Of a DNA stretch of 32,000 nucleotides, positions 1-28,107 are shown in pieces. A program made the translations under genes and the position numbers. Location: positions 660,001 to 692,000 of the forward strand of contig NC_018655.1 in NCBI RefSeq assembly GCF_000299365.1, read 5' to 3'. The notes under the pieces were generated by a model. It did not search any database and was not told the origin of the DNA. It saw only the letters and a program-made list of their open reading frames with translations. How positions within the stretch are numbered: the stretch's first letter is position 1; each line of letters opens with the position of its first letter. Source of the DNA: Candidatus Nitrosopumilus koreensis AR1 (GTDB taxonomy: Archaea; Thermoproteota; Nitrososphaeria; Nitrososphaerales; Nitrosopumilaceae).

Positions 1-2
1 AG

Positions 3-346
3 GTGATAAAACTGAGTGAGACCCTCTATCCTCCATTTTTAAAATGGGGGCAGTACACATCTCAAGACTCTGAGAATCCTGACACCATAGAGCTCAAGGT
101 TGCTGAAACCAATACCTTTGAGACAGAATTCTCAATCAATGTACTAGCATTGATTAAAGAAAAAAGACATGGAAAGAATACAACGTTAAACTGAAAAACC
201 ATGATTCAGCAAATGCTTCTTTCCTAAACCAGTGGAACAGGATTGCAAAGTCACTTCACAAAGGAGACATACTGGTTCTCAAGACGTGGCTTGGAACATC
301 AAAGAATGGAAGAAAAATCAGGAGGTACAGTCTAGAGAAACTCTAG
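3..346 (+). pseudogene. Hypothetical mobile-element ORF whose frame changes (frame 3 to frame 2) at an A6 tract (160-165); 5' end may lie outside the window
   Basis: Track ORF 3..194 stops at 192-194. Frame 2 is stop-free over 158..346 (63 codons), has no ATG/GTG/TTG, and reads protein-like (..TWKEYNVKLKNHDSANASFLNQWNRIAKSLHKGDILVLKTWLGTSKNGRKIRRYSLEKL). One extra A in gaaaaaaga would join the two parts. Confidence 0.45.
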
Positions 347-378
347 ACTCTCCTTTTTTTGACAATAGTGATGGTATT

Positions 379-695
379 ATGGCAGAAGACAAAGATAAAC
401 TTTTGAAACAGTTAGACGCACTCAAGATTTTTCCAAACAACAAACTAGTAAGAGAATTAAAGAATCAAATTAAAACAAAATTAAAAAATTAGAAATTACA
501 AAACCCATTCCACCAAAGAAAAATCCAAACCTTACACGCTCAAACAAACTAAAGCGATATCACAACTACATCAGGCAAATCAGAAACAACTTTCCAAATC
601 TAAAATACAACCAGATAAGAAAACAGTTTGCAAAACGAAAGCGTGGCGATGACGTATCAATTCCTGATGCAGTATGGCAGAATCCGTCCCCGTAA
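379..695 (+). pseudogene. Small basic protein directly upstream of and overlapping the polymerase gene; frame 1 to frame 3 change at A6 tract 483-488
   Basis: ATG 379 opens MAEDKDKLLKQLDALKIFPNNKLVRELKNQIKTKLKN, with a stop at 490-492. Frame 3 is stop-free over 474..695 (73 sense codons, no start codon) and reads ..LEITKPIPPKKNPNLTRSNKLKRYHNYIRQIRNNFPNLKYNQIRKQFAKRKRGDDVSIPDAVWQNPSP. One extra A in ttaaaaaatt joins them. The 3' end overlaps the polB ATG (674) by 22 nt. Confidence 0.45.
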
Positions 696-2458
696 CTGAC
701 TGCAAGAATCTGAGAAGAGTATTTACAAAAAAGCCTCAGAACAGAGATCCTGCAACATCGCACAAGAGAAGAGTCTATGCAATTGATACAGAAACCTATA
801 ACGGCAACATCTTTCTGATTGCCGACTCTGATGGGAGATTCTTGGATAAAATCACGCCAAAATCATGCCTAGACTGGCTGTTTTGCAGAAAATATGAGGG
901 TTCGTGGTGCTTTTTTTATCATCTCGGGTATGATGCAGAAGTAATTCTGAAACTTTTAGGCTCTGAACTATTCAAGTACAAAAATACTGGAAGACTGAAA
1001 TTCTCCTTTGAAAATTACACCATAGAGTATCATCCAAACAAGTGTCTGAAAATATCAAAGGGACATCACTCTGTGATATTTTATGACATTGCGCAATTCT
1101 ATCATGCAAAACTATCTGATGCATATCAAAACAATATCAGAAAACTACCTAAAGAGTATCTTGACATAAAGTCAAAAAGGAGTCAGTTCTCAATTACATT
1201 TTACAAAAGAAACACAAGAAAAATCAGAGATTACTGCATCACAGACTGCAAACTGACAAAAGAGTTGGCAGAGCACTGGATAAAATTATTCCATGATGCA
1301 TTTGGATTCTATCCTGCAAGATGGGTATCCTCTGGATATCTGGCAGAAAAAGTCTTGATCAACAACGGAATCAATTTCCCAAAGTTTGATGATGTTCCAT
1401 ATGATGTTCAGGAGATGGCGTTTTCATGTTACTATGGAGGACGATTTGAAATTACAAAGCGTGGATTTATTGGAACTGCTTACAAGTATGATATCAACTC
1501 TGCATATCCCCATTCCCTGACAAAGATTCCTGACCTGACCAAAGGACGATGGATTAAAAGAAAGTCAATTCACAAAGATGCAAAACTTGGATTCTTTAGG
1601 ATTATTGCAGACATTCCAGACTGCAAGTATATTCCACCGTTTCCGTTTCGTACCAATGGAATTATTATTTTTCCTAGTGGAAAGTTTGAAACGTATGTTA
1701 CATTACATGAACTAAAAGTTGCAGATTCAAAACATTACAAAATTTTGGATTCATATCAGTTCATTCCAAACGGCAAGCCAGTCTATCCTTTTGAGAAATT
1801 TGTTCATTCAATGTATGATAAAAGACTGGAACTAAAGAAAGACGGAAACCCATTGCAGTTGCCAATCAAGATAATTCTCAATTCAATCTATGGAAAGACT
1901 GGTCAGAAAGTCAATAGAATAATGGGAAATCTGTTCAATCCTGTGATTTTTGCAAGTATTACAGGCATGACTCGTGCCTGCCTGTATGACTTTGTGATGC
2001 AAAATGATATTGAAAATGACGTGGTGTCTTTTGCAACTGATTCAGTATGCACTACCATTCCATTAGATATTGATTCAGAAAGATTAGGAGAATTCTCACT
2101 AGAAGAAAAAGCCGATGATGTGTTTGTATTGCAGAACGGATTCTATCGATTTAACGGAAAGTGGAAACAAAGAGGGATTGGAAAACTAGGTTCTAAGGAG
2201 ATTGAGCATCTTGATACTTTTGAGAAAGATGGAAAACTGTACTATCGGTTCAAGGTATTGAGAAGTTCAAGATTAAGATCCTCAATATTGCAGGATTGCA
2301 TTCCACAGATTGGAAAGATTAGAGAGTATGTGAGGGAAGTTAATTTGAATGCAGATAGAAAAAGACTTTGGCTAAATCAAATTCAATCTGTTGATTCTAG
2401 AACAAAAAATGATTCTGTACCTATATCATTAAGTCATTTTTATAAAGAGACAATTTAG
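674..2458 (+). CDS. polB: Family B DNA polymerase of the protein-primed (pPolB, DNA_pol_B_2-like) type
   Basis: 594 aa. The motifs occur in the canonical order: ExoI YAIDTETY, ExoII YHLGYDAEVI, ExoIII YCITDCKL, PolA YDINSAYPHS, PolB KIILNSIYGKTG, PolC SFATDSV. The small size and motif spelling fit viral/plasmid/casposon pPolBs rather than replicative archaeal PolB. Confidence 0.85.
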   Translation: MAESVPVTDCKNLRRVFTKKPQNRDPATSHKRRVYAIDTETYNGNIFLIADSDGRFLDKITPKSCLDWLFCRKYEGSWCFFYHLGYDAEVILKLLGSELFKYKNTGRLKFSFENYTIEYHPNKCLKISKGHHSVIFYDIAQFYHAKLSDAYQNNIRKLPKEYLDIKSKRSQFSITFYKRNTRKIRDYCITDCKLTKELAEHWIKLFHDAFGFYPARWVSSGYLAEKVLINNGINFPKFDDVPYDVQEMAFSCYYGGRFEITKRGFIGTAYKYDINSAYPHSLTKIPDLTKGRWIKRKSIHKDAKLGFFRIIADIPDCKYIPPFPFRTNGIIIFPSGKFETYVTLHELKVADSKHYKILDSYQFIPNGKPVYPFEKFVHSMYDKRLELKKDGNPLQLPIKIILNSIYGKTGQKVNRIMGNLFNPVIFASITGMTRACLYDFVMQNDIENDVVSFATDSVCTTIPLDIDSERLGEFSLEEKADDVFVLQNGFYRFNGKWKQRGIGKLGSKEIEHLDTFEKDGKLYYRFKVLRSSRLRSSILQDCIPQIGKIREYVREVNLNADRKRLWLNQIQSVDSRTKNDSVPISLSHFYKETI

Positions 2459-2474
2459 TAGATCTTCATAACAT

Positions 2475-3419
2475 ATGATTGAAATTCCTGACGATGTTGA
2501 AAAATGGACTAGAGGAAAAGTAATAGATTTAGTTGATGAGGGATACGATGAGAACGACATATTAGAATTTAAAAAAGAAGTAAATTCTGATAGTGAACGA
2601 TTATCAAAAACAGCATGTGCATTTGCAAATACAAATGGTGGTACAATTATTTTTGGAATTGATAATGATCGTGAAAAAGCATTACATGTTGATCAGAGAG
2701 TTGTAGGTTTAGAAGACTCAGATCAATTAAAAAGAAACATAATTGATAAAATAAAAAACATTCAACCCAGTATTCCTATCAAAAATCTTATTTTTAGAAA
2801 AACGAATATCAAATTACCAAATAAAAGAGTAATTGTTGTTTTGAAAATAGCATCATCCAATAACAAACCTCATCAATACAAACACATCTTTTACAAAAGA
2901 TTGTCTGATGGGAATGAACCTATGGATGTTACTGAAGTTAAACAACTAATGCTAGAATCAGTTAAACAAACACATCACGAAGTTCTGATGATCTTGGAAC
3001 TTAGTTATGTAAAAGAAGCACTAGAAAATACAAAAAAATCATTTATGGAAAATAAAAATTCTTTAGGCAGTCTGGATTATCTTGACATTACATCAACAAT
3101 TCATTTCCAACATCATTTGGCATATGGATATCCGACAGACTTGCCTGTGACATTAATTGAATTGATTCATGAAATTACACGACTTTCTAACCTTCCAAAC
3201 TCTTTTGCTTCAACACTAAATGGTAAACCTCCAAAATTCATAATCGATGATGCAAAAAGTGAAAATTTTTCCGACCCTAAAGAATTTGTCAAAGGGTTGA
3301 TTTTAACACGAATTAATACTGCACTTGAGTGTCTTGAAAAAATATCTCTTATTTTAGAACGAGATTATGTAGAAACTGAATTTATTCATCCTATTCAAAA
3401 TATGCAAGACAAATCCTAA
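2475..3419 (+). CDS. AlbA_2 / Schlafen-like (divergent AAA_4) putative DNA-binding domain protein
   Basis: 314 aa. The N-terminal block LEFKKEVNSDSERLSKTACAFANTNGGTIIFGIDND matches the AlbA_2 signature (lEfK..., AfaNt.GG.l.iGv.d). The C-terminal half is unassigned. Starts 17 nt after the polB stop. Confidence 0.6.
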   Translation: MIEIPDDVEKWTRGKVIDLVDEGYDENDILEFKKEVNSDSERLSKTACAFANTNGGTIIFGIDNDREKALHVDQRVVGLEDSDQLKRNIIDKIKNIQPSIPIKNLIFRKTNIKLPNKRVIVVLKIASSNNKPHQYKHIFYKRLSDGNEPMDVTEVKQLMLESVKQTHHEVLMILELSYVKEALENTKKSFMENKNSLGSLDYLDITSTIHFQHHLAYGYPTDLPVTLIELIHEITRLSNLPNSFASTLNGKPPKFIIDDAKSENFSDPKEFVKGLILTRINTALECLEKISLILERDYVETEFIHPIQNMQDKS

Positions 3420-3465
3420 CTTCCATCATTCTCTAGTCATAACGAAAAACAGCAGTGAATTAGGA

Positions 3466-3585
3466 ACGGAATGGGGGGATTCTATTTTTATTGATAAAGA
3501 GTAAAAAGGCAGTCCCCCCTCCTTACGTACGAAAACATGCGTTGTACTATAGCGAAACGACGGTGTGATTTGTTGGGATTTGTTT
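3466..3585 (+). repeat. Intergenic repeat family, copy G (hairpin subtype, loop flipped)
   Basis: GGGGGG(3473-78)...attgataaagagtaaaaaggca...CCCCCC(3514-19) forms a hairpin. Downstream blocks ttacgtacgaaaa and ggtgtgatttgttgg are colinear with copies E and F. Confidence 0.7.
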
Positions 3586-3687
3586 ATTTTAGAATTGTAT
3601 GGAATTTTAAAAGAAAACGAATTCGAATCATAGTGTAGAAAGATATTGAAAATAATTGTTATGCTATTGATCTAAAAGGCTTACTGA

Positions 3688-4372: not shown

Positions 4373-4909
4373 ATGCCAATAGCAGAAAACTTTCCAGAAG
4401 GTCTGAAACCAATTGGAAAAATAAAACATGCTGACGGTGAAAACTTTCATCATGTTTGGGGCCCTGGCAGATCAAATGCAGAAGCATTCAAAGATGACAA
4501 GGTAAAAGCTGCTTATGCAAAGAGAGATGAAAAACAGGTTCCATTGGGGATAAGTGGCACAATGGTTGCAGTTGACTGGGACTCTTGTGTTGCAGATGGT
4601 GCATGTATAGAGTCATGTCCTGTCCAAGTATTCCAGTGGTATAGGACTGAAAAAGACACTCCTGCAATAGATGCAATCAATGAAACCTTTGAAGGAACTG
4701 GCAGTTCTGAGAAAGATGAAAGAAAGGACTATACCGACAAGGCAGACCCAATTCGAGAACACGATTGTATATGGTGCATGGCATGCGTTTCTGTTTGTCC
4801 TCCACAGGCAATCAAAGTTGAGCAGGGCAATCTGGAGTTTCATGAAAAGGAAGCTGGAACTTTTGTAAAGATGGAATCAGGTTCTGCAAATCCACATGCG
4901 CATGCTTGA
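4373..4909 (+). CDS. zfx: Zinc-containing dicluster (3Fe-4S + 4Fe-4S) ferredoxin, Sulfolobus Zfx type
   Basis: CVADGACIESCP (CxxDxxCxxxCP) and CIWCMACVSVCP (CxxCxxCxxxCP). VFQWY and KADP blocks and a His-containing N-terminal extension match the Sulfolobus zinc ferredoxin. Confidence 0.9.
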   Translation: MPIAENFPEGLKPIGKIKHADGENFHHVWGPGRSNAEAFKDDKVKAAYAKRDEKQVPLGISGTMVAVDWDSCVADGACIESCPVQVFQWYRTEKDTPAIDAINETFEGTGSSEKDERKDYTDKADPIREHDCIWCMACVSVCPPQAIKVEQGNLEFHEKEAGTFVKMESGSANPHAHA

Positions 4910-5038
4910 TTTTATTCTAAATCTTCACTTAAACATAGATTCTCATCCATAACTATGATTCTAAGACTTCTTTTAGTTTAACATATTCTTCAGGAGAAAT
5001 TTTGCCTTTTGCCAATCTTTTCTTTAGGGTTACAAGAA

Positions 5039-5074
5039 GGGCTTTGCCTTTTTATCTGCAAAAATAGAAATTCC
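5039..5074 (+). repeat. Partial copy (K) of the hairpin module
   Basis: gggctttgccttttta is identical to the left arm of copy F (9078-9093). The rest is diverged. Confidence 0.35.
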
Positions 5075-5155
5075 ATAGAATTATGCGTAAAGTTCCGAGT
5101 GTATAGTGCTTAAGATTCTAAATATTACTTCAATTAGATATTGAATAATGCCTTT

Positions 5156-5548
5156 TTATTTTGATGAATGCCCATCAGAGAGAATTATGCATACAAACAT
5201 TCCTTTGCCTGATATTGCCTGAGCGCTGTGAGTTAGGCCTTTTGGGATGAATATGGTACAGGGAGATGTCACAGTGTATGTCTCATCTTCTAGATCTATT
5301 TTGTACTTTAGCTTAGAGTCTTCAGACAAGATCAAGTTAATCTCATCATTGTCATGTTTGTGAGGGATGCTGTATTCTGGTAGTTTTTTTTCAGCATCAA
5401 CAAAATGTACTGCAATATGCGTATCTGATTGCGGAATCATTTTTTTGCTTAGCATTGAGAGTCGTTTTATTGGTGCTTTTTTATGAAAGGGGACTTTATG
5501 TAATGGCTCATTTACTCCTTTTTTAATTAAATTCCGATACTTTCTCAC
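5156..5548 (-). CDS. Cupin domain protein
   Basis: 130 aa. Cupin motif 1-like PHKHDNDEINLIL and motif 2-like FIPKGLTHSAQ. Confidence 0.6.
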   Translation of the reverse strand: MRKYRNLIKKGVNEPLHKVPFHKKAPIKRLSMLSKKMIPQSDTHIAVHFVDAEKKLPEYSIPHKHDNDEINLILSEDSKLKYKIDLEDETYTVTSPCTIFIPKGLTHSAQAISGKGMFVCIILSDGHSSK

Positions 5549-5628
5549 AGTACTACATTGGATTTTCTATTAAATAACTAGACCTGTTTAGATGAATATT
5601 ATATGCTATTACTATACTACTAGTATTA

Positions 5629-6321
5629 TTGCAATCAGATAGAACCTCTGAATGGTTTGTTCCAAAGTTTGGTCCAAAAAACTTTCGCCGCAGTGTTGGA
5701 ATTTTGTTTTTACCATACACTGCAATCGTTACATGTTTTGCAGTACTAGGTGCAACCTCTGGCAGTTTAGATGTTGGACGAATTGTTGCAATTAGCATAA
5801 TCTATTTTCTGGCACTTGGAGTCAGTGCACATCTACTTGATGCAATAGGTGGAAAGACAAAGCCTTGGGGAGATCTTCCAAAGAGGAAATTATGGAGTAT
5901 CTCCATGATTTCATTAGGTGCTGCATTTTCAATTGGGCTGTACTTTGCATTCTTGGATTCACCCTTGCTTTTTCCAATAGGAATTGCAGAGGGATTCTTT
6001 TTGTTTGCATATAATCTAGAATGGTTTGGTGGAAAATTTCACAACAAGATTACAACCATAATTTCATGGGGAATCCTGCCCGTATTTGCAGGCTCTGCCA
6101 TCCAAACAAACTCAATCACGCTTGAGACAGTGGCAATATCAGGCATTACTGCATTAATCACATATGTGCTAATTAGAAACACCAGGCCCTACAAGATACT
6201 AAAGCAAAACAACGGAGACCAGCAAGAGATTAGACGCAGAGAACTATTTTTGAAGATACTGCCACTGGGAGTAATTATTGGAACAATTTTGTTTTTTATT
6301 GTAAAATATTATGTGATTTAA
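5629..6321 (+). CDS. Integral membrane protein (about 6-7 TM segments)
   Basis: 230 aa with a TTG start. Repeated hydrophobic stretches throughout. No catalytic motif recognised. Confidence 0.6.
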   Translation: MQSDRTSEWFVPKFGPKNFRRSVGILFLPYTAIVTCFAVLGATSGSLDVGRIVAISIIYFLALGVSAHLLDAIGGKTKPWGDLPKRKLWSISMISLGAAFSIGLYFAFLDSPLLFPIGIAEGFFLFAYNLEWFGGKFHNKITTIISWGILPVFAGSAIQTNSITLETVAISGITALITYVLIRNTRPYKILKQNNGDQQEIRRRELFLKILPLGVIIGTILFFIVKYYVI

Positions 6322-6325
6322 GATT

Positions 6326-7003
6326 TCAAATCATTTTTGCAAAAATAATTGATGATGTGTGCCAGGTCATATCATGTCTTGATACGATAAAGTTATTTTT
6401 CTCCAGAGTTTCTGTATAGTCATCAACCCATCTGCTTTCTCGGATTAGATTTGGCAGTTCTTTAAAGGCAAACTTCCAAGAGGGAACAAAGTTTCCTGCA
6501 AACAATAAAATCTCAAAGTAGGCATTCCACAAGTTTTGCAATAATCTGTTTTGTGGAAAAATAAAATCATGCAGTATTATGGTGCCCTTTGGATTCAGAT
6601 GTGAAATGCATTTTTGAATTAAGGTTTTGGGATCACAGTATTTTGGAATGTATGATGAACAGATGCAGTCAAACTTTTCTTTTAGGTCCAACTCTTCTGC
6701 ATCTTGATAAACAAATGAGATGTTTTCAAATCCTGTGGAGTTTTGTTTTGCGATTTGCAGATATGTCTGAGATATGTCTACCCCGGTTATTTTTGCGTGT
6801 GGAAATTTTTGGGCAATCATCCTAGTCAGGATTCCCGTACCACATGCAAGATCTAAAACAGAGTCAGCACTTGGAATATTTTGAATTATCTTGTCTTTCC
6901 AGTACTTGTCTTGTCCAAACGTTGCCCAATTTGCTATTTTATCATAGGTTTTTGCAGTGTCATTAAAAAAGCGCGGAACAAGATTTCTTGGATTTTGGTT
7001 CAC
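6326..7003 (-). CDS. Class I SAM-dependent methyltransferase (UbiE/COQ5-like)
   Basis: 225 aa. Motif I VLDLACGTGILT, with post-I and motif II spacing typical of the UbiE/MenG family. Confidence 0.85.
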   Translation of the reverse strand: MNQNPRNLVPRFFNDTAKTYDKIANWATFGQDKYWKDKIIQNIPSADSVLDLACGTGILTRMIAQKFPHAKITGVDISQTYLQIAKQNSTGFENISFVYQDAEELDLKEKFDCICSSYIPKYCDPKTLIQKCISHLNPKGTIILHDFIFPQNRLLQNLWNAYFEILLFAGNFVPSWKFAFKELPNLIRESRWVDDYTETLEKNNFIVSRHDMTWHTSSIIFAKMI

Positions 7004-7037
7004 TATTGGATTAACACTTCAAATAATTTAAAGAAAT

Positions 7038-7247
7038 TTAAGAAAACTCGTACATTCTTAGCATTATTTCAAAGACTACATAGTATGCAGCATAAAACGC
7101 CAAAAGAACCACTCCAATCAGTAGGCAATTTTTTGCCTTTGAAGGGTCATCTTTTCGTAAGATAAAGTAAGCAATCAGTGCACCAGGCATGCTAAAGAAT
7201 AGCGGTAGGACATACCAAAATAAACTGCGTTCTTTTCTCTCAGACAT
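7038..7247 (-). CDS. Small 2-TM membrane protein
   Basis: 69 aa with two hydrophobic helices (WYVLPLFFSMPGALIAYFIL, LLIGVVLLAFYAAYYVVF). Confidence 0.6.
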   Translation of the reverse strand: MSERKERSLFWYVLPLFFSMPGALIAYFILRKDDPSKAKNCLLIGVVLLAFYAAYYVVFEIMLRMYEFS

Positions 7248-7304
7248 GTCTTAAGAATATCTTTTGTAGCATTTAATCTAAAAATCAAAAATTAGTAATA
7301 GGTG

Positions 7305-7410
7305 AGCTTTGCCTTTTACTCTTTGTCGATAAAAAGGCAATCCCCCCTTTTAGGTTCAAGAATCTGCGGCCTACTAAAACAAGACGAAAGTATGATTTGT
7401 TGGAAAGGGC
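7305..7410 (+). repeat. Intergenic repeat family, copy E (hairpin subtype)
   Basis: gctttgccttttactctttgtcgataaaaaggcaatcccccc, then ggttcaagaatctgcgg, then gtatgatttgttgg. Confidence 0.7.
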
Positions 7411-7547
7411 TTATTTTCTAGAATCTTAGTGTTAAATCATGAAAGATTCTGAAAAACATCATTGCTATTCCATCCATATTATTATGTTCAACCACAATTA
7501 GATTTTGAGGGATATGAATTTGTGCATGGTTTTATATCAGAATTTGA

Positions 7548-8702
7548 CTATTTTGACTTTGTTTTTACTGATTTTTTGTTATCCGACTTTGAATTGTTTG
7601 TATTTTTTTCGTTATTTGATGGTCCAGTTCTATCTGGTTTGCCAGGATCGTCTGGCTTTCCTACTTTGATGTCTGGCTTTCCAAGAGTTTCTGGCATTCC
7701 CCTTGTGTATTCACTTGCATGAGGCGAATCTCCATCATCTGGCTGTATCTGTGTTTCTTCACTTTTTTCTACGATTGATTCTGAGTCTTCTAGTGGGGCT
7801 CCCAATGCTTCTTCAAGTGTATATCCTTTCATTTCTTTGAGAATATCATCTACAAGAACTTTGATTATTGGATCATCTAATAATGCTCCAAATCCGCCCT
7901 CGTTTCCTTCTTGCATAGCAGATATCTTTCTTAATTCTAACATTCTTTGCATTTTTTCTTTGAGTTTCACAAGTTTTTCTTTTAATTTTTCATCATGTAC
8001 CTGATTTAATGAACGCTCAATTGCAGGAATTACAAGATTCCATTCTTTTGACTTTGCAATTTCTTGTAGTGCTTCTTTGTGAAGGTCTTTGTCTAGTCTG
8101 TTTTGTCCTTGTTGCGCATTTCTTATTGCAATCTCATTAATCAGTTTCTGATATTTCTCTTCAGGTCCTTTTCTATCTAAATAATCTTGGATTTTCAACT
8201 TTTTGTTTTTAACTTCTTCTTGTTTTGATTCATTTATCTCAAAGTTCATTTTTTGCTTAGTTATTTTTGCTACTAGTTTTTTTTCTTGAATTAAAAGTCC
8301 AGACTCTCTTTCATGTTCTCGAATAGAATCAATATGGGTTTCTAGCGTTTTGATATATTCTTTTTTTAATGTATCAATATTTGTTTTGAATGGAAATAAT
8401 GAAATATCTTCCATTTTATTTAATTCTAATAGAGAATCCTTGATTTGCATAAATTGAAATACATTGCCTGATAAAGTTATTTCATTGATATTTTCTGGTA
8501 AATTCTGCAAATGAGTTATTTGTAATTCTATGTTTTGTATCTTTTTTCCAATTTTTTCATGTGATTCACCATATGTTTCAGGTATGGCAGCAATTCCTAT
8601 CAAAATTACTCCTAATGCACTCAATAAGAATAACTCTTTTTTATGTAAACAATGAGGGTCTGATTCTATCGAATTCACTTCAAATATGTTATTACATGTC
8701 AA
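7548..8702 (-). CDS. Membrane-anchored coiled-coil protein with Lys/Pro-rich tail
   Basis: 384 aa. N-terminal hydrophobic anchor LFLLSALGVILIGIAAIP, a long heptad-like E/K/L-rich body, and a KPD/K-rich C-terminus. The TTG start is uncertain. Confidence 0.6.
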   Translation of the reverse strand: MTCNNIFEVNSIESDPHCLHKKELFLLSALGVILIGIAAIPETYGESHEKIGKKIQNIELQITHLQNLPENINEITLSGNVFQFMQIKDSLLELNKMEDISLFPFKTNIDTLKKEYIKTLETHIDSIREHERESGLLIQEKKLVAKITKQKMNFEINESKQEEVKNKKLKIQDYLDRKGPEEKYQKLINEIAIRNAQQGQNRLDKDLHKEALQEIAKSKEWNLVIPAIERSLNQVHDEKLKEKLVKLKEKMQRMLELRKISAMQEGNEGGFGALLDDPIIKVLVDDILKEMKGYTLEEALGAPLEDSESIVEKSEETQIQPDDGDSPHASEYTRGMPETLGKPDIKVGKPDDPGKPDRTGPSNNEKNTNNSKSDNKKSVKTKSK

Positions 8703-8920
8703 GTAATTGGAGAGCCTCCATCATATGGGGCAGACCGTGAAAGATCAATTTGATCATCTGTAACTACTTTGATAGAAAAGTTGCTAAGTGTATTTGGAGC
8801 AGTTACTGCACTTGCTTCTGAAGACATTGAAAAAACATTAGCTATTGAAATAATAGATGATGCCAAAAATTTTGTTTGTAAGATGTTCCATATACTTTTA
8901 CAATTATAAATTTGAGTCAA
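8699..8920 (-). pseudogene. N-terminal remnant of a secreted fibronectin-type-III-like protein
   Basis: 73 aa. A signal-like segment (FLASSIISIANVFSMSSEASA) is followed by NFSIKVVTDDQIDLSRSAPYDGGSPIT, the first two strands of an FN3 domain (..W..P.ddGGspIt). It then hits a TGA and the sequence continues as unrelated coding. Confidence 0.45.
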
Positions 8921-9075
8921 CTTGTTTTAATTCGGAAAAATAGTAATTAAGAAAGGCTGACATGTTAGTTAGTATAGCATACATGTTTGTTAGCGTAATT
9001 TACAAATTTTGGAATATTGTATCTAGAGGGCTATTGACAACTATTATTTATAAAATAAAATTTTGCAATTAAGGA

Positions 9076-9180
9076 AGGGGGCTTTGCCTTTTTACTCTTT
9101 ATCAATAAAAGGCACTATTCTCTTTTTACGAAAAGTTAGCAATAGCCTAAATCATAATGGGTGTGCGGTTTGTTGGAAAA
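9076..9180 (+). repeat. Intergenic repeat family, copy F (hairpin subtype)
   Basis: gggggctttgcctttttactctttatcaataaaaggcactattc, then tttttacgaaaag, then gggtgtgcggtttgttgg. Ends about 33 nt before the TTG start at 9213. Confidence 0.7.
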
Positions 9181-9212
9181 TCGTTATAATGATAGTATGA
9201 ATTTGTGAAATA

Positions 9213-9524
9213 TTGGGTTCAAAAACAACAATTGGAATTAGTTTGGCAACTGTATTTTTTGGCGTAATTGCATTAATCTGGTTTACTGGATACAGTTCTG
9301 ACCATATTGAAAATGCAAATAGAAACTTGATGACAGCTCATGAAGAATTGAATAGAATTGTTGATGAGGCAATCATTCATTGTCAAACTGACGGTACTGG
9401 ATGTGATACAATAATGCCTCAGTGGTTAGAAGAATGCAAAAAACCTGAGATGGAAAAAATTGCATCTTGTCATGATGGCCGAATCGAGCAACTAGTTCAA
9501 CAACCCATTACCATGACAAAATAA
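9213..9524 (+). CDS. Small N-terminally anchored Cys-containing protein
   Basis: 103 aa with a TTG start, one TM segment (ISLATVFFGVIALIWF) and 4 Cys in the soluble part. Confidence 0.5.
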   Translation: MGSKTTIGISLATVFFGVIALIWFTGYSSDHIENANRNLMTAHEELNRIVDEAIIHCQTDGTGCDTIMPQWLEECKKPEMEKIASCHDGRIEQLVQQPITMTK

Positions 9525-9559
9525 TGCTCTTTGATTTAACCTTGATCGTATTTACCAAA

Positions 9560-9970
9560 TTACAAAACGGCAGAGCCCTTTCCAAAATACGCCTTGACAT
9601 GCGGCCTGAACAAATAGTACAGGATTACAATGTCAATTATCAGGCCAATCACATTCATTGATGGCAGGTCCACAATCAAAGAAATTATGGTCAGAATCAG
9701 CGTTATGGTCCAGGCCCACGACTTTCCGCGGAGCAGCCCCCAGGCCATTACAAAAGAGGCAACACCAAGTACAATCATTGCGGCACTACCTGCACCCATT
9801 GCACCGCCGCCAAGATTCATTCCCATCGAACCCATCATTGTTCCAAAGAATGCTCCGACTGCTATTGCTATGGCACCGGAGACTATCTCAAGTATTGCAA
9901 TGATTGTCACCCCGACTGGTCTTGTTCTGGCAGACAACTCTTTTGGTGGGGGATGGATTGTAATAAGCAT
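9560..9970 (-). CDS. Gly/Ala/Met-rich integral membrane protein
   Basis: 136 aa with 4 hydrophobic segments and an LLRGKSWAW motif. Both opposite-strand ORFs have low-complexity composition. Confidence 0.7.
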   Translation of the reverse strand: MLITIHPPPKELSARTRPVGVTIIAILEIVSGAIAIAVGAFFGTMMGSMGMNLGGGAMGAGSAAMIVLGVASFVMAWGLLRGKSWAWTITLILTIISLIVDLPSMNVIGLIIDIVILYYLFRPHVKAYFGKGSAVL

Positions 9971-10095
9971 TCATAACATCATATGGGATGAATTATTTTT
10001 TCATATGGTATGTTCTTGACAGATTGGAATAATTAATTTTATCACTTTATCAGCAATTATACAACACAGTAACTGAATTTAGAATCATTAAATAC

Positions 10096-10554
10096 ATGTC
10101 CATATACAAACATGATAAAAACATGGCAGTAATTAAGAAGCAAAATTCAAAGGTAAGAAAAGATAAAAATTCTAAAAATATTAAAAAAACACTAAAAACA
10201 AAAACCAACCCCAACACAAAGAAACTTACAAAACATGTTATCTGGATGGAGAAAAAAGGCAGGGTTAAAAAAAATAATGACTTGGATCTTAAAGAAAAAT
10301 TTAGGAAGGAATTAGAAAAAAAGCAATTTGAACCAAGCATGAAGATGTTAATTCGCATAACAGAATCCATAAAACAAAAAGGTTCTAGAAACAAGACAAC
10401 GCTATCGCGCGACACCAAGACAAACTATACAAGACTTACAAAACATGTTGTCTGGATGGAGAAAAAAGGCCTTGTGGAATCAGAAATAAAAAATCATAGT
10501 ATTGCTATTGCTTTAACTAGTAAAGGCAGATTCTTTGTAGATACAATTTTGTAA
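10096..10554 (+). CDS. Lys-rich winged-helix DNA-binding protein with internal partial duplication
   Basis: 152 aa. The C-terminal ~70 aa (MLIRITESIKQKGSRNKTTLSRDTKTNYTRLTKHVVWMEKKGLVESEIKNHSIAIALTSKGRFFVDTIL) looks like a wHTH domain. The recognition-helix segment LTKHVIWMEKKG is duplicated 70 codons upstream. Confidence 0.6.
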   Translation: MSIYKHDKNMAVIKKQNSKVRKDKNSKNIKKTLKTKTNPNTKKLTKHVIWMEKKGRVKKNNDLDLKEKFRKELEKKQFEPSMKMLIRITESIKQKGSRNKTTLSRDTKTNYTRLTKHVVWMEKKGLVESEIKNHSIAIALTSKGRFFVDTIL

Positions 10555-10636
10555 TGAATAATTAGTAAGTTAAACTTACATATGTGTAAGCTATACTTAA
10601 CTATTTTACAGATTATAACTAAATGATCAACAATTT

Positions 10637-11194
10637 ATGAAAAAACTAGTATGTGATACAGATGTACAACGAGAACCTCAAGTGATCATTTGGAACAACA
10701 CTCAAATCTTAAAATGGAGTGATTTTAAAAAAAAATCCGATCCTGACTCAGAGGCATCAGCTAATGCAGCAATAGGGTTTGAGTCAAAACCCATAATTGA
10801 ATATCTCAAAGTGGGAAAGCAACTCAAATATAAAATCAAAGATTTGCAATTAAATGCAATTTTCATTCCTAATTTATCTTGGGTAACAAAAAATATCAAT
10901 CTAAAAGAAGGGAATTTACTTTTAAAACATGAACAGGGTCATTTTGATCTAGCAGAAGAAGTCATTAGAAAAATTAAAAATAAATCAACAGGCATTTACA
11001 AAGTATTTACGATCAAAGAAAAAAATAAGAATAATATGAAAGAAGCAACATTGCAAGTAAATAAAATAAGAGATGACATCGAATCAGAACTACAAAATGA
11101 GTTTAATATCCAAGAATCAAAATATGATAATAAAACTAATCATGGATTGATCAAAATACATCAAAAAAATATAATAAAAGATTCAAAAAACTAA
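10637..11194 (+). CDS. DUF922-like putative Zn-dependent metalloprotease
   Basis: 185 aa. The HExxH motif sits in LLLKHEQGHFDLAEE, the context I associate with DUF922. Confidence 0.55.
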   Translation: MKKLVCDTDVQREPQVIIWNNTQILKWSDFKKKSDPDSEASANAAIGFESKPIIEYLKVGKQLKYKIKDLQLNAIFIPNLSWVTKNINLKEGNLLLKHEQGHFDLAEEVIRKIKNKSTGIYKVFTIKEKNKNNMKEATLQVNKIRDDIESELQNEFNIQESKYDNKTNHGLIKIHQKNIIKDSKN

Positions 11195-11415
11195 GACTAA
11201 ATTAATCAAGATCAAAGAATATTTGCACATCAAAGATGGAACCGTACTAATCTGTTTTAAGAATAATTTATACTCAATACTAAAAAATGAACTAATTCCA
11301 CAGTTTTAGAATATTGTTAGTGGGCTAGAATCTATGTTTAAGTGGAGATTTAGAATAAAATCAAGCATGTGCATTGTTGGAAATTAGTTATTAATGGATT
11401 ATTCAAATTCGATTT

Positions 11416-11799
11416 ATGGCAAATGTTGAATTGATAAAACAGTTCTATCATGCTTTTAAAAACAAAGACAAGGAAACGTACCTTGGACTGTGTGATGAAA
11501 ATATCACATGGCAGCTATCTGAAGGAATGCCAAATGGCGGAGTATACGTAGGAAAAGATGCAGTTTTCAAAGAATACTTTCCAAAAATGCTATCAAACTT
11601 TAAAGAATTTCATGCCATTCCTGAACAGTTCACAGACATGAAAGACCATGTAATGGTAAATGGAATGTATTCTGGAATCTCAAATACGGGAAAATCATTT
11701 GAGGTTGCTTTTTCTCATGTTTATCACATTCAAGATGACAAAATAATTCAGTTTAGACAGTTTACTGACACTCAAAAAATCCAAGAATCATTAAAGTAA
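11416..11799 (+). CDS. SnoaL-like / NTF2-superfamily protein
   Basis: 127 aa. The N-terminus ELIKQFYHAFKNKDKETYLGLCDENITW..G..YVGKDAVFKEYF is typical of SnoaL-like domains. Confidence 0.75.
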   Translation: MANVELIKQFYHAFKNKDKETYLGLCDENITWQLSEGMPNGGVYVGKDAVFKEYFPKMLSNFKEFHAIPEQFTDMKDHVMVNGMYSGISNTGKSFEVAFSHVYHIQDDKIIQFRQFTDTQKIQESLK

Positions 11800-12228
11800 T
11801 TTTTTTGTCTATGGGATTAGAGAATTTCTTCCACTTACCATTCTTGGTCTGGATTCTCTAGCTGACTCCATTTGCTTTCAATTCTTTTGAATATCTTTTT
11901 TTGTTTACTTAATAATTGGAACATGACTCCATTATGCAAAATTTGTATTTAACCGCCACGTAGGAATTATCCTGTTGCATTCTGAACATCTTGTTTTTCT
12001 TAGATTGTCTTGTGATCTCTTGTATTCTCTTAAACGAGTCTTAATTCCTCTTATTTTCTCTTAGAAAATGCTTGAATCTGCTGTATTGTGATAGTTTTTG
12101 CTTAAACTGTGCCTAATTTCAGTCACAAACAAACCTGATTTTAGTAAAATCAAGTGAAATTAAGATATTTTAAGAAATTAAGAGATTACACAAACTTAAG
12201 TATCTTTTATTATAGAAATCGATTAAAA

Positions 12229-12408
12229 ATGGCTGCCAAAACAAAACCAAAAACTCCAAAAAAAGTTACCAAAGTCAAATCTATGCAAGATGCAAAAAAT
12301 AAAATTTATTCAAGAATTAAAAAAGGTGAAAATTTCAGTGAGATTGTCAAGACCAAATTTGACATTAATGGCAGTACAGTCAAAAATGGCCTGAATCTTA
12401 AATTCTAG
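12229..12408 (+). CDS. Small Lys-rich protein (59 aa)
   Basis: ATG 12229 lies within track ORF 12154..12408 and opens MAAKTKPKTPKKVTKVK. The upstream GTG-initiated part looks non-coding. Confidence 0.5.
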   Translation: MAAKTKPKTPKKVTKVKSMQDAKNKIYSRIKKGENFSEIVKTKFDINGSTVKNGLNLKF

Positions 12409-12534
12409 AATTATTCTTCAACAAATATCCAAGATAATCCTCTAACTTCTTCCCAAGATTGATTTGAATTATTATCTTTCATGATGTTTGTTGTGCATAA
12501 ATTGTTTATAATACTCATGAATGATTTGTTCAGA

Positions 12535-12655
12535 TCATTGATCCATGTTGAATTCAAATTGCTCCCAATAATGGTTCGGGCCTCTAAGGATTCACATTTT
12601 GTAGAATTGAACTGAAATACTAGACTCTTTGATTGCCTGATGATTAAATAGAATT
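12535..12655 (+). repeat. Intergenic repeat family, copy D
   Basis: gatccatgttgaattcaaattgctcccaataatggttcgggcctctaaggattcaca...agactctttgattgcctgatgatt. Ends about 17 nt before the pirin GTG. Confidence 0.6.
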
Positions 12656-12671
12656 ATTTTGTATAACAACT

Positions 12672-13553
12672 GTGTCATCATCTAAAAAAGAAAGAATCAT
12701 CTCTGAAATTATAACAGCTAAAACCACGACTGAGGGTGATGGCTTTCAAGTCAATAGACCATTTCCAAATTATGCAGTAAGAGATTTTGATCCTTTTTTA
12801 CTTCTTGATGAAATGGGTCCTGTAAATTATGCTCCAGATGAAGCAAAGGGTGCATCCCCTCATCCTCATAGGGGATTTGAGACAGTAACATACATGATTG
12901 ATGGTGCATTTGAACACAAAGACTCGCAAGGAAATTCTGGAAAACTATTTCCAGGAGATGTGCAATGGATGACTGCAGGCTCTGGAGTAATTCATTCTGA
13001 ACTACCTGAAAAAGAATTTGCAAAAAAAGGTGGAAGGTTTCATGGATTGCAACTATGGGTAAATCTGCCGAAAAAAGAAAAGATGATTCCTCCAAGATAC
13101 CAGGAAATTTCTTCAAATGACATTCCTGTTGTAAAAACAGATGATGGCTCTGTTCAAGTTAAGATAATTGCAGGAGAATCAATGGGGAAAAAAGCAGTAA
13201 TTGATACAAAAATTCCAATAATTTATCTGCATTTCACGCTTCAACCAAATGCAACATTTATTCAAAATGTGCCTCAAAATTACAATGCATTTGCATATGT
13301 GATAAAAGGAGATGCGATGTTTGGAAATGAAAAAATTCTTGCAAAGCAAAATCAAGCCGTATTTTTTGATCAAATAGGAGAAAATATTGCTATTTCAAGT
13401 GATAGTGATCCAACCGAAGTGCTACTAATTGCAGGTGTGCCAATTAATGAGCCTGTAAAACGATATGGTCCGTTTGTAATGAACACTGATGATGAATTAC
13501 AACAAGCCGTAAAAGATTTCCAAAATGGTAAAATGGGAAAAATTGATTTTTAG
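12672..13553 (+). CDS. Pirin family protein
   Basis: 293 aa. DPFLLLDEMGP, HPHRGFETVTYMIDGAFEHKDSQGN and VQWMTAGSGVIHSE are the canonical pirin N-terminal cupin blocks. Confidence 0.9.
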   Translation: MSSSKKERIISEIITAKTTTEGDGFQVNRPFPNYAVRDFDPFLLLDEMGPVNYAPDEAKGASPHPHRGFETVTYMIDGAFEHKDSQGNSGKLFPGDVQWMTAGSGVIHSELPEKEFAKKGGRFHGLQLWVNLPKKEKMIPPRYQEISSNDIPVVKTDDGSVQVKIIAGESMGKKAVIDTKIPIIYLHFTLQPNATFIQNVPQNYNAFAYVIKGDAMFGNEKILAKQNQAVFFDQIGENIAISSDSDPTEVLLIAGVPINEPVKRYGPFVMNTDDELQQAVKDFQNGKMGKIDF

Positions 13554-14355: not shown

Positions 14356-14574
14356 TTGAAACCATCAAAATATGAAAAAGATGTGACTGACACCATGACT
14401 GACACCATGACTGACACCATGACTGACACCATGACTGACACCATGACTGACACCATGACTGACACCGTGACTGACACCGTGACTGACACCGTGACTGACA
14501 CTGTGGCTGACAGTAATGCAATACTGCATCATCTCAATATTGATCCTGCCAGTTCAGATGATGATTGGGACTAG
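14356..14574 (+). CDS. Possible repeat protein (TDTM x6, TDTV x3-4) with acidic C-terminus
   Basis: 72 aa with a TTG start. Five track ORFs in different frames span the repeat, so coding status and frame are uncertain. Confidence 0.35.
   Translation: MKPSKYEKDVTDTMTDTMTDTMTDTMTDTMTDTMTDTVTDTVTDTVTDTVADSNAILHHLNIDPASSDDDWD
14385..14516. repeat. 12-bp tandem repeat, about 11 units
   Basis: gactgacaccat x6, gactgacaccgt x3, then gactgacactgt and ggctgacagtaa. Read directly from the sequence. Confidence 0.95.
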
Positions 14575-26439: not shown

Positions 26440-28107
26440 ATGATTAAAAATAATGTTTTAAAATATTTTGCAATATCTGTATTACTTCTTTCATCTTTGA
26501 CTATGTTTCAAAACAATAGTAGTTTTGCAGCAACATCTCTGGATCTTGGAACATCTGCCAACTTTGGTGTCTTGGGTTCCTCAACGGTAACCAATGACCC
26601 AACATTAGGCACTGGTACAACCATCACAGGAGATCTTGGATTAAGCCCCGGTACAGCGATTACTGGCTTCTATGGTGCTAATGAAAATGGTGGTCCAGGA
26701 ATTGTAACAGGAACGACACACCAAGCTGATGCAACAGCAGCCAAAGCTCAAGCTGATGCGCTTGACGCATTTAACGAACTTGCAGCCAAGAGTTGTGACA
26801 CCTTTGCTCCTTGGCCTGGTGGAGGCGGAATAGAAATGAATGCATTAACACTTGTACCTGGAGTTTACTGTTCTACTTCATCACTTACTTTAGCAACAGG
26901 TGGAACACTTACTCTTGATGGTCCCGGAGTTTACATCTTCAAGGCTGCCAGTAAACTAACCACTTTTTCAGATTCTAATATAATCTTGACCAACGGCGCA
27001 ACAGCTGATAACGTATTTTGGTATGTAGGTACTTCTGCAACTCTTGCATCCCCAACCACAGGTTCTGGAAATACGTCTGTATTCTCAGGAACTGTAATTT
27101 CTTCAGCAGCAATCTCGCAAACCGGCGGTGACGCTGACACTCTCTTGGATATAGACGGCAGATTAATTTCACTAAACGCAGGAGTTACATTTGCATCTAC
27201 TGCGCATATCACAGTTCCAGCAGATATTACTCCACCAACTGACACCACTGACAATACAACAACTAAAACCACTGACAATACAACAACTACAACCAATGAC
27301 GATACAACAACTAAAACCCCTGACAATACAACAACTAAAACCCCTGACAATACAACAACTAAAACCCCTGACAATACAACAACTAAAACCACTGACAATA
27401 CAACAACTAAAACCACTGACAATACAACAACTAAAACCACTGACAATACAACAACTGATCCTTACAAATCTAAACAACCAGATCTTAAACTGGTATCACC
27501 TTACTTGCAAAGCAATACATTGAAGGATTTTCGTACAACACAACAAACAACTGAAACCATCACATCTTCCAGCGGAAGTTCTGGCTCTGCTGTAGGTTCT
27601 ACAACATTAGATGAAGAGTATGTTTTACCTAAGCCTGGAACTACTCCTGACTCATTTGCATATGGATTCAAAAAAGCATTTGAAGGGTTAGACTTGGCAT
27701 TTACATTTAATCAAAACGATAAAGTTGCAAAACATCTGAAATTTGCAGAACTACGACTGAGTGAAACAAATGCAGTAGTTCAAAAAGGAATGCCTGAACT
27801 AGTTAATGGTCTAACAAATGACTATGAAAAACAAGTATCTGATGCAAACAAAATTGCAGACTCTGCATCAAAAGCTGCAGACAAGGCATCTTTAACTGAA
27901 GATATAATGTCTGCATCATCCAACCATGTAGAAGTTCTAACTGAACTCAAAGATACACTTCCAGAACAAGCACAATTAAGAATCCAAGTGATAATTGATA
28001 ATTCTAAAAAAGACATTGGTATTGCAATGAAAGAACTCTCAAACTATGCTAATGCTATGGAAAAATCAAAAGAAATGAAACAAACAGCTGAAGATCGCAA
28101 ACCATAA
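26440..28107 (+). CDS. Secreted DUF3494 (ice-binding-like) domain protein with Thr-rich repeat linker and DUF5667-like C-terminal helical domain
   Basis: 555 aa with a signal peptide. LGTSANFGVLGSSTVTNDPTLGTGTTITGDLGLSPGTAITGF is the canonical DUF3494 N-terminus. TDNTTTKT/PDNTTTKT occurs x9. The C-terminal PDSFAYGFKKAFEGLDLAFTFNQNDKVAKHLKFAELRLSE resembles DUF5667. Confidence 0.85.
   Translation: MIKNNVLKYFAISVLLLSSLTMFQNNSSFAATSLDLGTSANFGVLGSSTVTNDPTLGTGTTITGDLGLSPGTAITGFYGANENGGPGIVTGTTHQADATAAKAQADALDAFNELAAKSCDTFAPWPGGGGIEMNALTLVPGVYCSTSSLTLATGGTLTLDGPGVYIFKAASKLTTFSDSNIILTNGATADNVFWYVGTSATLASPTTGSGNTSVFSGTVISSAAISQTGGDADTLLDIDGRLISLNAGVTFASTAHITVPADITPPTDTTDNTTTKTTDNTTTTTNDDTTTKTPDNTTTKTPDNTTTKTPDNTTTKTTDNTTTKTTDNTTTKTTDNTTTDPYKSKQPDLKLVSPYLQSNTLKDFRTTQQTTETITSSSGSSGSAVGSTTLDEEYVLPKPGTTPDSFAYGFKKAFEGLDLAFTFNQNDKVAKHLKFAELRLSETNAVVQKGMPELVNGLTNDYEKQVSDANKIADSASKAADKASLTEDIMSASSNHVEVLTELKDTLPEQAQLRIQVIIDNSKKDIGIAMKELSNYANAMEKSKEMKQTAEDRKP
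27247..27456. repeat. 24-bp tandem repeat, about 9 units (coding, Thr-rich linker)
   Basis: The unit actgacaatacaacaactaaaacc has a/c variation at the first base. Read directly from the sequence. Confidence 0.95.

Follow-up and report, generated by a model that had tools for sequence, protein, structure and literature searches.

Casposons have been proposed as ancestors of the CRISPR adaptation module. Family 1 of these elements includes NitAR1-C1 and NitSJ-C1, both described by Krupovic et al. (2014; PMC4046053), and the integration biochemistry of the NitAR1-C1 casposase has been studied in detail (Beguin et al., 2019, PMC6614799; Wang et al., 2021, PMC8464041). In vitro, this enzyme recognizes a TTT leader together with the 13-bp sequence ATTGATAAAGAGT and joins the 3' ends of the terminal inverted repeats (TIRs) to both strands, 13 bp apart (PMC6614799, PMC8464041). 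[quoted passage not shown] Tandem family 1 casposons, NitNF5-C1 and NitNF5-C2, are present in N. adriaticus (Krupovic et al., 2019, PMC6563490), and solo TIRs have been noted for family 2 casposons in Methanosarcina mazei (Krupovic et al., 2016, PMC4779613). In the casposon papers searched, we found no mention of solo TIRs, relics and arrays at the aEF-2 gene for family 1, and likewise no report that an element of this family is excised or moves in vivo or that its polymerase is active or uses protein priming.

The window analyzed here is a stretch of 32,000 nucleotides from Candidatus Nitrosopumilus koreensis AR1 (NC_018655.1, positions 660,001 to 692,000). Its left end almost certainly belongs to NitAR1-C1, of which it represents the right part. 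This family 1 casposon is equivalent to NitSJ-C1 and located at the 3' end of aEF-2 (Table 1). NitAR1-C1, the reference element for family 1 and a putatively self-replicating transposon of a marine archaeon, is already published and biochemically studied. The element itself is not new, and finding a family 1 element with a characterized integrase once more adds nothing on the element as such.

Table 1. Features of the casposon-derived region; positions refer to the window unless L001 is stated
Feature	Position	Strand	Remarks
NitAR1-C1, right-hand portion (almost certain)	1..3489	+	3.49 of 8.18 kb = 43%
Small gene 1, conserved in casposons; NitSJ-C1 version of 114 aa	3..346	+	split by 1-nt deletion, A-run 160-165
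Small gene 2, conserved in casposons; NitSJ-C1 version of 154 aa, 34 K+R	232..695	+	split, A-run 483-488
pPolB, protein-primed-type family B DNA polymerase, 594 aa	674..2458	+	Pfam DNA_pol_B_2
AlbA_2/Schlafen-like gene, 314 aa	2475..3419	+	PF04326 (SLFN_AlbA_2), E 1.1e-20, residues 26-151
Right TIR	3426..3489	-	64 nt, 100% complementary to left TIR (L001 4638-4701)
Right TSD copy, ATTGATAAAGAGT	3490..3502	+	direct repeat of left copy; identical to the experimentally defined TSD
Second, divergent TIR end, AAAAAGGCAGTCCCCCC...	3503..3597	+	adjoins TSD; carries C6
TSD/TIR junctions	3503; 7318-7330; 9094-9106		TSD copies and TIR ends

Identity and extent of the element

Over 12,458 nt, the window sequence is identical to AJVJ01000024.1 from Nitrosopumilus sp. 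AR, and this contig continues for 9.3 kb to the left of the window. Locus L001, which is identical to the window from its position 9328 onward, carries the full element, as delimited using the 13-bp TSD, at positions 4638-12816. The left 4.69 kb, which lie beyond the window, comprise the left TIR, a gene for a 166-aa protein, cas1 and further small ORFs. The aEF-2 gene is located upstream on the same contig and is followed by cas1. The latter is an ORF of 347 codons (L001 5270-6313; PF01867, E 8e-43 in Pfam) that resides 3.7 kb upstream of polB, with a start-to-start distance of 4.7 kb. No further Pfam domain is present in the 347-aa Cas1 protein, as is the case for family 1 casposases, which lack a C-terminal HTH.

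The published coordinates are NC_018655 655308..663492 for NitAR1-C1, the right end of which (663492) corresponds to window position 3492, and AJVI01000008 52214..60400 for NitSJ-C1. With the mapping anchored by the casposase coordinates given in PMC6614799, the ends found here agree with those of both published elements within 3 nt. Host, aEF-2 target and the sequences of TIRs and TSD are likewise the same. The AR1 and SJ copies are exactly two 1-nt deletions apart, which matches the published difference, and the element itself shows no deviation from the one described. What the published maps of NitAR1-C1 and NitSJ-C1 do not contain is the second TIR end at the right TSD and the TSD/TIR junctions further downstream.

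The preliminary description of the window had taken the region for the right end of a mobile element cut by the window edge and had named casposons, spindle-shaped viruses and cryptic integrated elements as possible sources. The left TIR, cas1 and the left TSD copy upstream bear out the first part, and the casposon is the correct choice among the three. This interpretation is settled because the leftward extension of the contig reveals Cas1, TIRs and TSD. As pPolB genes also occur in integrated spindle-shaped viruses (NSV-like or His1-like) and in cryptic elements with a tyrosine integrase, the end of such a virus or element would likewise account for the polymerase gene and for a window in which no cas1 is visible. 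Such an origin is nevertheless highly improbable: the 8.2 kb bounded by the TIRs also encode Cas1, both TSD and target correspond to the casposase, and none of the nine ORFs in the left part has a capsid, packaging ATPase or integrase domain according to Pfam.

The polymerase

As expected from the preliminary description, pPolB matches the DNA_pol_B_2 profile (PF03175, E 6.8e-26); a further match was obtained with phrog_11768 'DNA polymerase' (E 1.7e-62). The best 120 of 656 homologues have a length of about 594 aa (558-596) and include proteins from N. sediminis, N. adriaticus and Nitrosotalea devaniterrae, all of which are published hosts of family 1 elements. Motifs ExoI (D38-x-E40), ExoII (Y82...D87) and ExoIII (Y187...D191) as well as Pol motifs A (D273-INSAYP) and B (K399-IILNSIYG) are invariant in 13 family members. 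The earlier claim that all Exo and Pol motifs are present in the spelling typical of protein-primed enzymes holds with respect to their presence but is slightly overstated for motif C, which reads F-A454-T-D456-S. The first aspartate of the usual DTD is replaced by alanine in 13 of 13 members.

A Foldseek search with the AlphaFold model of pPolB returned phi29 DNA polymerase as all of the top eight matches (E 3e-7), with RNA-primed PolBs about four orders of magnitude worse. The model is built on a shallow alignment and poor (pLDDT 55), and the Foldseek result was therefore used only to rank matches. In this ranking, phi29 DNA polymerase appears as the best structural match of the predicted pPolB fold. 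The corresponding alignment, inspected for the TPR1/TPR2 region, covers about 500 columns with a TM of only 0.32 at the model pLDDT of 55. Compact size, Exo motifs I-III and Pol motifs A and B are common to pPolB and phi29 DNA polymerase or protein-primed PolBs (PF03175) in general, whereas identity with phi29 DNA polymerase amounts to only ~15% and ATDS takes the place of DTDS in motif C. PDB sequence searches with pPolB alone and with the 13-member profile did not give a relevant match; the narrow family profile falls short of phi29 DNA polymerase.

For comparison, we used the aEF-2 loci of 80 related species, a set exclusive of the source genome and of N. maritimus, in which no isogenic empty site was seen. 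Full-length polB is present at two of these loci and polB is absent from 73, and the block as a whole is missing downstream of aEF-2 in 78 of the 80 species, which contradicts conserved synteny in all relatives. A chromosomal, vertically inherited PolB within an ordinary conserved block would fit the G+C content, which is similar to that of the host, and this is the sole point in its favor. We consider it exceedingly improbable in view of the absence of the gene beside aEF-2 in most relatives, the distance from RNA-primed PolBs in Foldseek and a Pfam match to DNA_pol_B_2 and not to a replicative PolB family. A grouping with replicative PolBs is not seen; pPolB groups with casposon pPolBs and phi29 DNA polymerase.

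Small genes, cargo and integrity of the AR1 copy

Two small ORFs upstream of and co-directional with polB (3-194 and 232-492) had been noted before. They are present but constitute only the frameshift-truncated 5' parts of the 114-aa and 154-aa genes listed in Table 1. The first gene is split into pieces in one frame (3-194) and in the next (158-346). The second extends 22 nt into polB, and the region 493-673 looks non-coding because of the 1-nt deletion in the preceding A-run. Both runs are A6 here and A7 in SJ (L001/L002 alignment). L007, a Nitrosarchaeum MAG, has an intact homologue of small gene 1 (77% identity) at the corresponding site before polB, and intact homologues of small gene 2 are found directly upstream of polB in L007 (79%) and L068 (65%). 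Both loci retain the order of 67-, 114- and 154-aa genes followed by polB; three or four conserved, uncharacterized small genes directly in front of pPolB are typical of family 1. The basic 154-aa product of the gene preceding polB is, by its position, a candidate terminal protein.

The AlbA_2-like gene that had been reported closely downstream of polB was confirmed. It follows after a gap of 16 nt and is separated by 6 nt from the perfectly repeated stretch of the right TIR. The AlbA_2/Schlafen-like domain forms the N-terminal portion of the protein, and the C-terminal half has no domain assignment. Homologues are absent from the 80 related aEF-2 loci, and PADLOC did not match this gene or the other casposon ORFs to any defense system. 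The gene is cargo specific to NitAR1-C1.

A sequence of events can be envisaged in which joining of the TIR ends by the casposase would be followed by gap repair, leading to duplication of the 13 bp and leaving aEF-2 intact. pPolB may replicate the element in a protein-primed manner, starting at the TIR ends, with the small genes directly upstream of polB as candidates for terminal or DNA-binding proteins, and the AlbA_2 gene would be carried along as cargo.

As two conserved small genes are frameshifted, activity of the AR1 copy is uncertain. It could be a casposon by descent that has become a dead relic, immobile and non-replicating. In line with such a state, two genes that are conserved across family 1 each carry a -1 frameshift, and decayed casposons are common at aEF-2 in relatives (fragments of polB or cas1 in eight loci, solo TIRs in others). 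We regard it as unlikely, however: the two TIRs have remained 100% identical across 64 nt, cas1 and polB are full-length, the NitAR1-C1 casposase is active in vitro (PMC6614799, PMC8464041), and the SJ copy, otherwise identical within the element, lacks both frameshifts. As is typical of sequencing errors, these reside in A6/A7 runs, and they could also be explained as homopolymer errors of this kind.

Termini and target site

The left TSD copy consists of the 13 nt at the end of aEF-2, up to and including the first base of the stop codon, and the left TIR adjoins the aEF-2 stop. At the other end, the right TIR extends imperfectly to about 3375, terminates with ...GGGGGGATTCTATTTTT and is matched by an independent TIR profile (16 other species) at E 9e-10. 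The second TIR end, on the far side of the right TSD copy, is homologous to a copy at 7331-7425 (z 22.9) and matched by the independent profile at E 0.02. As casposon genes are absent after it, it represents either a solo TIR or what is left of an older insertion. An empty site would be expected to read aEF-2, TSD, AAAAAGGCAGTCCCC.

A hairpin formed by a G6...C6 stretch had been suggested to mark the element boundary. The stretch is indeed situated exactly at the boundary, but it is not notable as a hairpin: folded as DNA, it yields an unremarkable -9.2 kcal/mol (z -1.7), and the hairpin reading was rejected on the basis of this ordinary fold energy. G6 (3473-3478) is part of the right TIR and C6 (3514-3519) belongs to the second TIR end. 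The stretch is the junction of the right TIR end, the TSD and the start of the older TIR, and its symmetry arises because two TIR ends abut. A tRNA as target was excluded because neither tRNA genes nor Rfam families are present in the window.

Junctions downstream of the element

From 3.7 kb on, the window contains mostly ordinary cellular families, among them ferredoxin, a UbiE-type methyltransferase, Cdc48 and pirin, in agreement with the chromosomal genes announced for this part. Two further TSD copies, both inverted and with TIR-like ends on both sides, are located at ~7.3 kb and ~9.1 kb. TIR ends T4, T5 and T6 are weak when taken alone and gain their support mainly from the fact that they immediately adjoin TSD copies. 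In a search of the window, no fourth TSD in forward orientation was found, as would be required to close a simple inversion. The winged-helix gene that is the usual downstream neighbor of aEF-2 in relatives is absent from the whole window, which makes it likely that a rearrangement of more than 28 kb has occurred. The segment 3503-7317 was also considered as a cargo-carrying non-autonomous casposon. This was rejected as a simple reading because its methyltransferase, UbiA-like and cupin genes form a core block that is found elsewhere in relatives.

The aEF-2 locus in related species

NitAR1-C1 is an accessory element that most related aEF-2 loci lack. A TIR is undetectable in 61 of the 80 loci, while at least 19 of the species have solo TIRs or remnants of casposons after aEF-2; gene-less elements consisting of TIR and TSD are present in L059 and L046. 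The Nitrosarchaeum locus L007 features a right TIR, the TSD and then a TIR of the AAAAAGGCA type, the same arrangement as encountered here, and its second element still holds a polB fragment. The L007 pair and the NitNF5-C1/C2 tandem of N. adriaticus (PMC6563490) have in common with the AR1 locus that the aEF-2 target has been re-used and that one TSD is shared between elements. Unlike in these tandems, only the aEF-2-proximal element is intact in AR1, and of the distal ones only TIR ends are left; moreover, core genes separate the junctions, and two of the TSD copies have the inverted orientation. TIR remnants at a preferred target are also known from the family 2 solo TIRs of M. mazei (PMC4779613), but casposon family and host phylum differ, and the target is intergenic or a tRNA there and the 3' end of a protein gene here.

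Implications

The second TIR at the right TSD, the inverted junctions among core genes and the frequent relics and mini-elements suggest that one target has been used repeatedly and in a polar fashion and that rearrangement occurred afterwards. We tentatively propose, at slightly short of even probability, that the aEF-2 site is a decayed, partly inverted multi-insertion array in which the intact NitAR1-C1 occupies the leader side, next to aEF-2, and is followed by at least three older TIR-TSD-TIR junctions (at 3.5, 7.3 and 9.1 kb) and a possible fourth at 5.05 kb, with core host genes in between, and that family 1 solo TIRs and TIR+TSD mini-elements devoid of cas1 and polB are widespread behind aEF-2 in Nitrosopumilaceae (at least 19 of 80 species). 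The added value of our analysis is modest and lies in these surroundings, i.e. in the second TIR, the inverted junctions and the frequent aEF-2 relics in Nitrosopumilaceae. If the proposal is true, the locus would exemplify natural polar 'TSD-insert-TSD' arrays built by a Cas1 enzyme without HTH domain. Such an array would bear on the casposon-to-CRISPR scenario, and casposon ends would have served as breakpoints of genome rearrangement.

Boundaries and identity of the element

An exact-protein look-up with the polymerase led to the contigs AJVJ01000024.1 from Nitrosopumilus sp. AR and AJVI01000008.1 from Nitrosopumilus sp. SJ. The window is identical to the former across the 12,458 nt compared, starting from position 9328 of this left-extended locus (L001). 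To the left of the window reside a VitK2_biosynth gene, a gene for a SIS-domain protein and the gene for elongation factor aEF-2, followed within the next 4.7 kb by a 166-aa ORF, a Cas1 protein of 347 aa (PF01867, E 8e-43) and five small ORFs (including one that weakly matches a winged-helix domain) before the window genes are reached. Besides showing that the 3' end of aEF-2 is directly repeated, a repeat finder detected a single outstanding inverted repeat (L001 4622-4718 versus 12736-12832). Gapped alignment showed that the terminal inverted repeat (TIR) is perfect over 64 nt (L001 4638-4701 versus window 3426-3489) and decays further inwards. The target-site duplication (TSD) has been set experimentally as ATTGATAAAGAGT (Wang et al., 2021, PMC8464041); its left copy reaches as far as the first base of the aEF-2 stop codon, while its right copy occupies window 3490-3502. 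With the 64-nt TIRs and the TSD copies placed, the element therefore covers L001 4638-12816 (8,179 bp), the right 3,489 bp of which lie inside the window.

The element is a known reference family 1 casposon and not a new one. NitAR1-C1 has been described at NC_018655 655308..663492 and NitSJ-C1 at AJVI01000008 52214..60400 (Krupovic et al., 2014, PMC4046053), and the published right end of NitAR1-C1 corresponds to window 3492 when mapped via the casposase coordinates of Beguin et al. (2019, PMC6614799). The window is thereby inferred to cover NC_018655 660001-692000. The preliminary description had recognized the right-hand end of a mobile element with a protein-primed-type family B polymerase. 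This observation is confirmed and its interpretation supported, and the Cas1, TIRs and TSDs found upon leftward extension uphold the casposon reading. It had also placed a G6...C6 hairpin at the boundary. The position is correct, as this stretch consists of the right TIR end GGGGGGATTCTATTTTT, the TSD ATTGATAAAGAGT and a second, oppositely facing TIR-like end AAAAAGGCAGTCCCCCC, but it does not stand out as a secondary structure (z -1.7).

Features of the casposon end and of the downstream junctions in the window
Feature	Position	Strand	Remarks
Small ORF 1	3-194	+	co-directional, ahead of polB
Small ORF 2	232-492	+	co-directional, ahead of polB
polB	674-2458	+	594 aa; Pfam DNA_pol_B_2, E 6.8e-26
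AlbA_2 gene	2475-3419	+	N-terminal SLFN_AlbA_2 domain, E 1.1e-20
Variant TSD ATCGACAAAGAGT	7330-7318	-	region 7300-7425
TSD copy ATTGATAAAGAGT	9106-9094	-	inside 22-mer 9106-9085; region 9074-9201

Polymerase, cargo and small genes

DNA_pol_B_2 is the family of protein-primed and organellar PolB enzymes, and the polB product also matches a phage DNA polymerase PHROG (E 1.7e-62). The initial statement that all Exo and Pol motifs occur in typical spelling holds for ExoI (D38xE40), ExoII (Y82..D87), ExoIII (Y187..D191), motif A (D273INSAYP) and motif B (K399IILNSIYG), all invariant across the 13 family members aligned, but not for motif C. The latter reads F-A-T-D456-S in 13/13 aligned sequences (window 2027-2041, residues 452-456), i.e., a canonical DTD with Ala in place of the first Asp. 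Of the 656 members of the family, the best 120 are about 594 aa long (558-596), stem from Nitrosopumilales and include the polymerases from N. sediminis, N. adriaticus and Nitrosotalea devaniterrae, all hosts of published family 1 casposons. The top eight PDB matches of a low-confidence AlphaFold model (pLDDT 55) are phi29 DNA polymerase (E 3e-7), while with the same model the scores of RNA-primed PolBs are about 10^4 worse. Given family members from casposon hosts and phi29 as best structural match, the enzyme does not group with chromosomal replicative PolB.

The AlbA_2 gene follows polB after 16 nt. As it has neither a homologue in the other 80 aEF-2 loci analyzed nor a match to any defence system, we treat it as element-specific cargo. 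ORF calls reproduce the co-directional block of two small ORFs, polB and AlbA_2-like gene; the small ORFs, though present, are not complete genes. Inside the element, AR and SJ differ in exactly two positions, both already published single-base deletions in AR. They fall into A-runs (160-165 and 483-488; A6 in AR versus A7 in NitSJ-C1) and truncate two genes whose SJ versions encode 114 and 154 aa. Two further casposons (L007, from a Nitrosarchaeum MAG, and L068) carry both genes undamaged and likewise arranged ahead of polB, so that the two small ORFs and the seemingly non-coding stretch 493-673 represent a single frameshifted pair of genes conserved in family 1. Either inactivating mutations or homopolymer sequencing errors may account for the frameshifts. 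The second small gene overlaps the polB start and its product is basic (34 K+R of 154).

The NitAR1-C1 casposase integrates TIR-derived DNA site-specifically and requires a TTT leader plus the 13-bp TSD; its second attack relies on an ATAA ruler (PMC6614799, PMC8464041). aEF-2 is still intact, and the identity of the TIRs suggests that NitAR1-C1 inserted recently. Presumably, the TSD arises by gap repair, protein-primed replication starts at the ends of the TIRs and the conserved small genes supply a terminal or DNA-binding protein.

Occurrence in related Nitrosopumilaceae

With the C-terminal half of aEF-2 as query and one genome per species, 80 Nitrosopumilaceae loci were collected (L003-L082). 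A casposon TIR directly follows aEF-2 in 19 of these 80 species (nhmmer E < 0.01; first 20-90 nt) and is undetectable in 61; about ten further species have shorter look-alikes, and plain non-TIR sequence comes right after the stop codon in several loci. L007 and L068 alone have a full-length polB downstream of aEF-2, and eight further loci have fragments of polB or cas1. Since only two species have the full-length gene, most of the 19 TIRs are relics or solo TIRs; with polB intact in 2/80 loci, the block is not a conserved chromosomal one lacking element boundaries.

A complete family 1 casposon with polB and cas1 at 85% identity is found at aEF-2 in L007 (11200-21197, JAILWJ010000001.1), in the orientation opposite to NitAR1-C1. 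Next to this casposon come a TSD, a further TIR of the AAAAAGGCA type and another polB fragment, which makes L007 the site of a tandem casposon pair. L007 thus shares the junction of right TIR, TSD and AAAAAGGCA-type TIR with the window. Two further loci carry elements at aEF-2 that are bounded by TIRs but lack cas1 and polB: a clean 3.0-kb element with direct 13-bp TSDs and four ORFs of 150-228 aa in L059 (11197-14202) and a 1.15-kb element with an inverted right TSD in L046 (11200-12364). Both are candidate non-autonomous family 1 casposons.

Other features of the window

A 12-nt tandem repeat, TGACTGACACCA, is located at 14384-14512 (10.8 copies, 97% matches) in a stretch without long ORFs; a 72-aa ORF may translate it into a (DTMT/DTVT)n peptide. 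A 555-aa protein with an Ice_binding-like domain and DUF5667 is encoded at 26440-28107, where G+C locally reaches 0.42 and GC skew is strongly negative; its gene contains a 24-nt x 9.2 tandem repeat (27236-27456).

TSD/TIR junctions downstream of NitAR1-C1

The 22-mer comprising the TSD and the TIR start, ATTGATAAAGAGTAAAAAGGCA (3490-3511), recurs exactly at 9106-9085 on the minus strand, with none expected by chance. The variant TSD at 7330-7318 is spelled as in the aEF-2 genes of most other species. Both this variant and the TSD at 9106-9094 are flanked by outward-facing TIR-like ends (AAAAAGGCA...CCCCC). Among the TIR-like ends T2 to T6, T2 (3503-3597) and T3 (7331-7425) are clearly homologous (z 22.9), homology of T6 (9107-) is weaker (z 5.8) and the likeness of T4 and T5 is limited to the terminal 17-20 nt or so. 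An independent TIR profile, built from 16 other species only, yielded E values of 1e-9 to 1e-8 for the casposon TIRs, 3e-5 for T3, 0.02 for T2 and 0.1 for T4. A possible but weak fourth junction without TSD, GGAATTTCTATTTTT/GCAGAT/AAAAAGGCAAAGCCC, is situated between the ferredoxin and cupin genes (5074-5039, minus strand).

Genes for a cupin, a UbiA-like membrane protein and a UbiE-type methyltransferase lie between the junctions (5156-7003). This block is widely conserved (855 methyltransferase homologues, E <= 1e-30) and placed elsewhere in relatives, which rules out that the inter-junction segments are simply mobile elements. The 80 relatives have none of the window genes downstream of aEF-2, an indication that the aEF-2 site has undergone a large rearrangement; the gene that normally comes after aEF-2 in relatives is absent throughout the window. 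With moderate confidence, the best reading is that the site was struck repeatedly, that older elements decayed to solo TIRs, that host DNA was brought in by at least one inversion or rearrangement between TIRs and that NitAR1-C1 was the last to insert, at the aEF-2-proximal TSD. Solo TIRs are also known for family 2 casposons of M. mazei (Krupovic et al., 2016, PMC4779613) and tandem family 1 casposons for N. adriaticus (Krupovic et al., 2019, PMC6563490). In the casposon papers of 2014, 2016 and 2019 that were searched, we found these features nowhere mentioned for NitAR1-C1, and the downstream TIR/TSD junctions constitute a modest lead beyond the known element.
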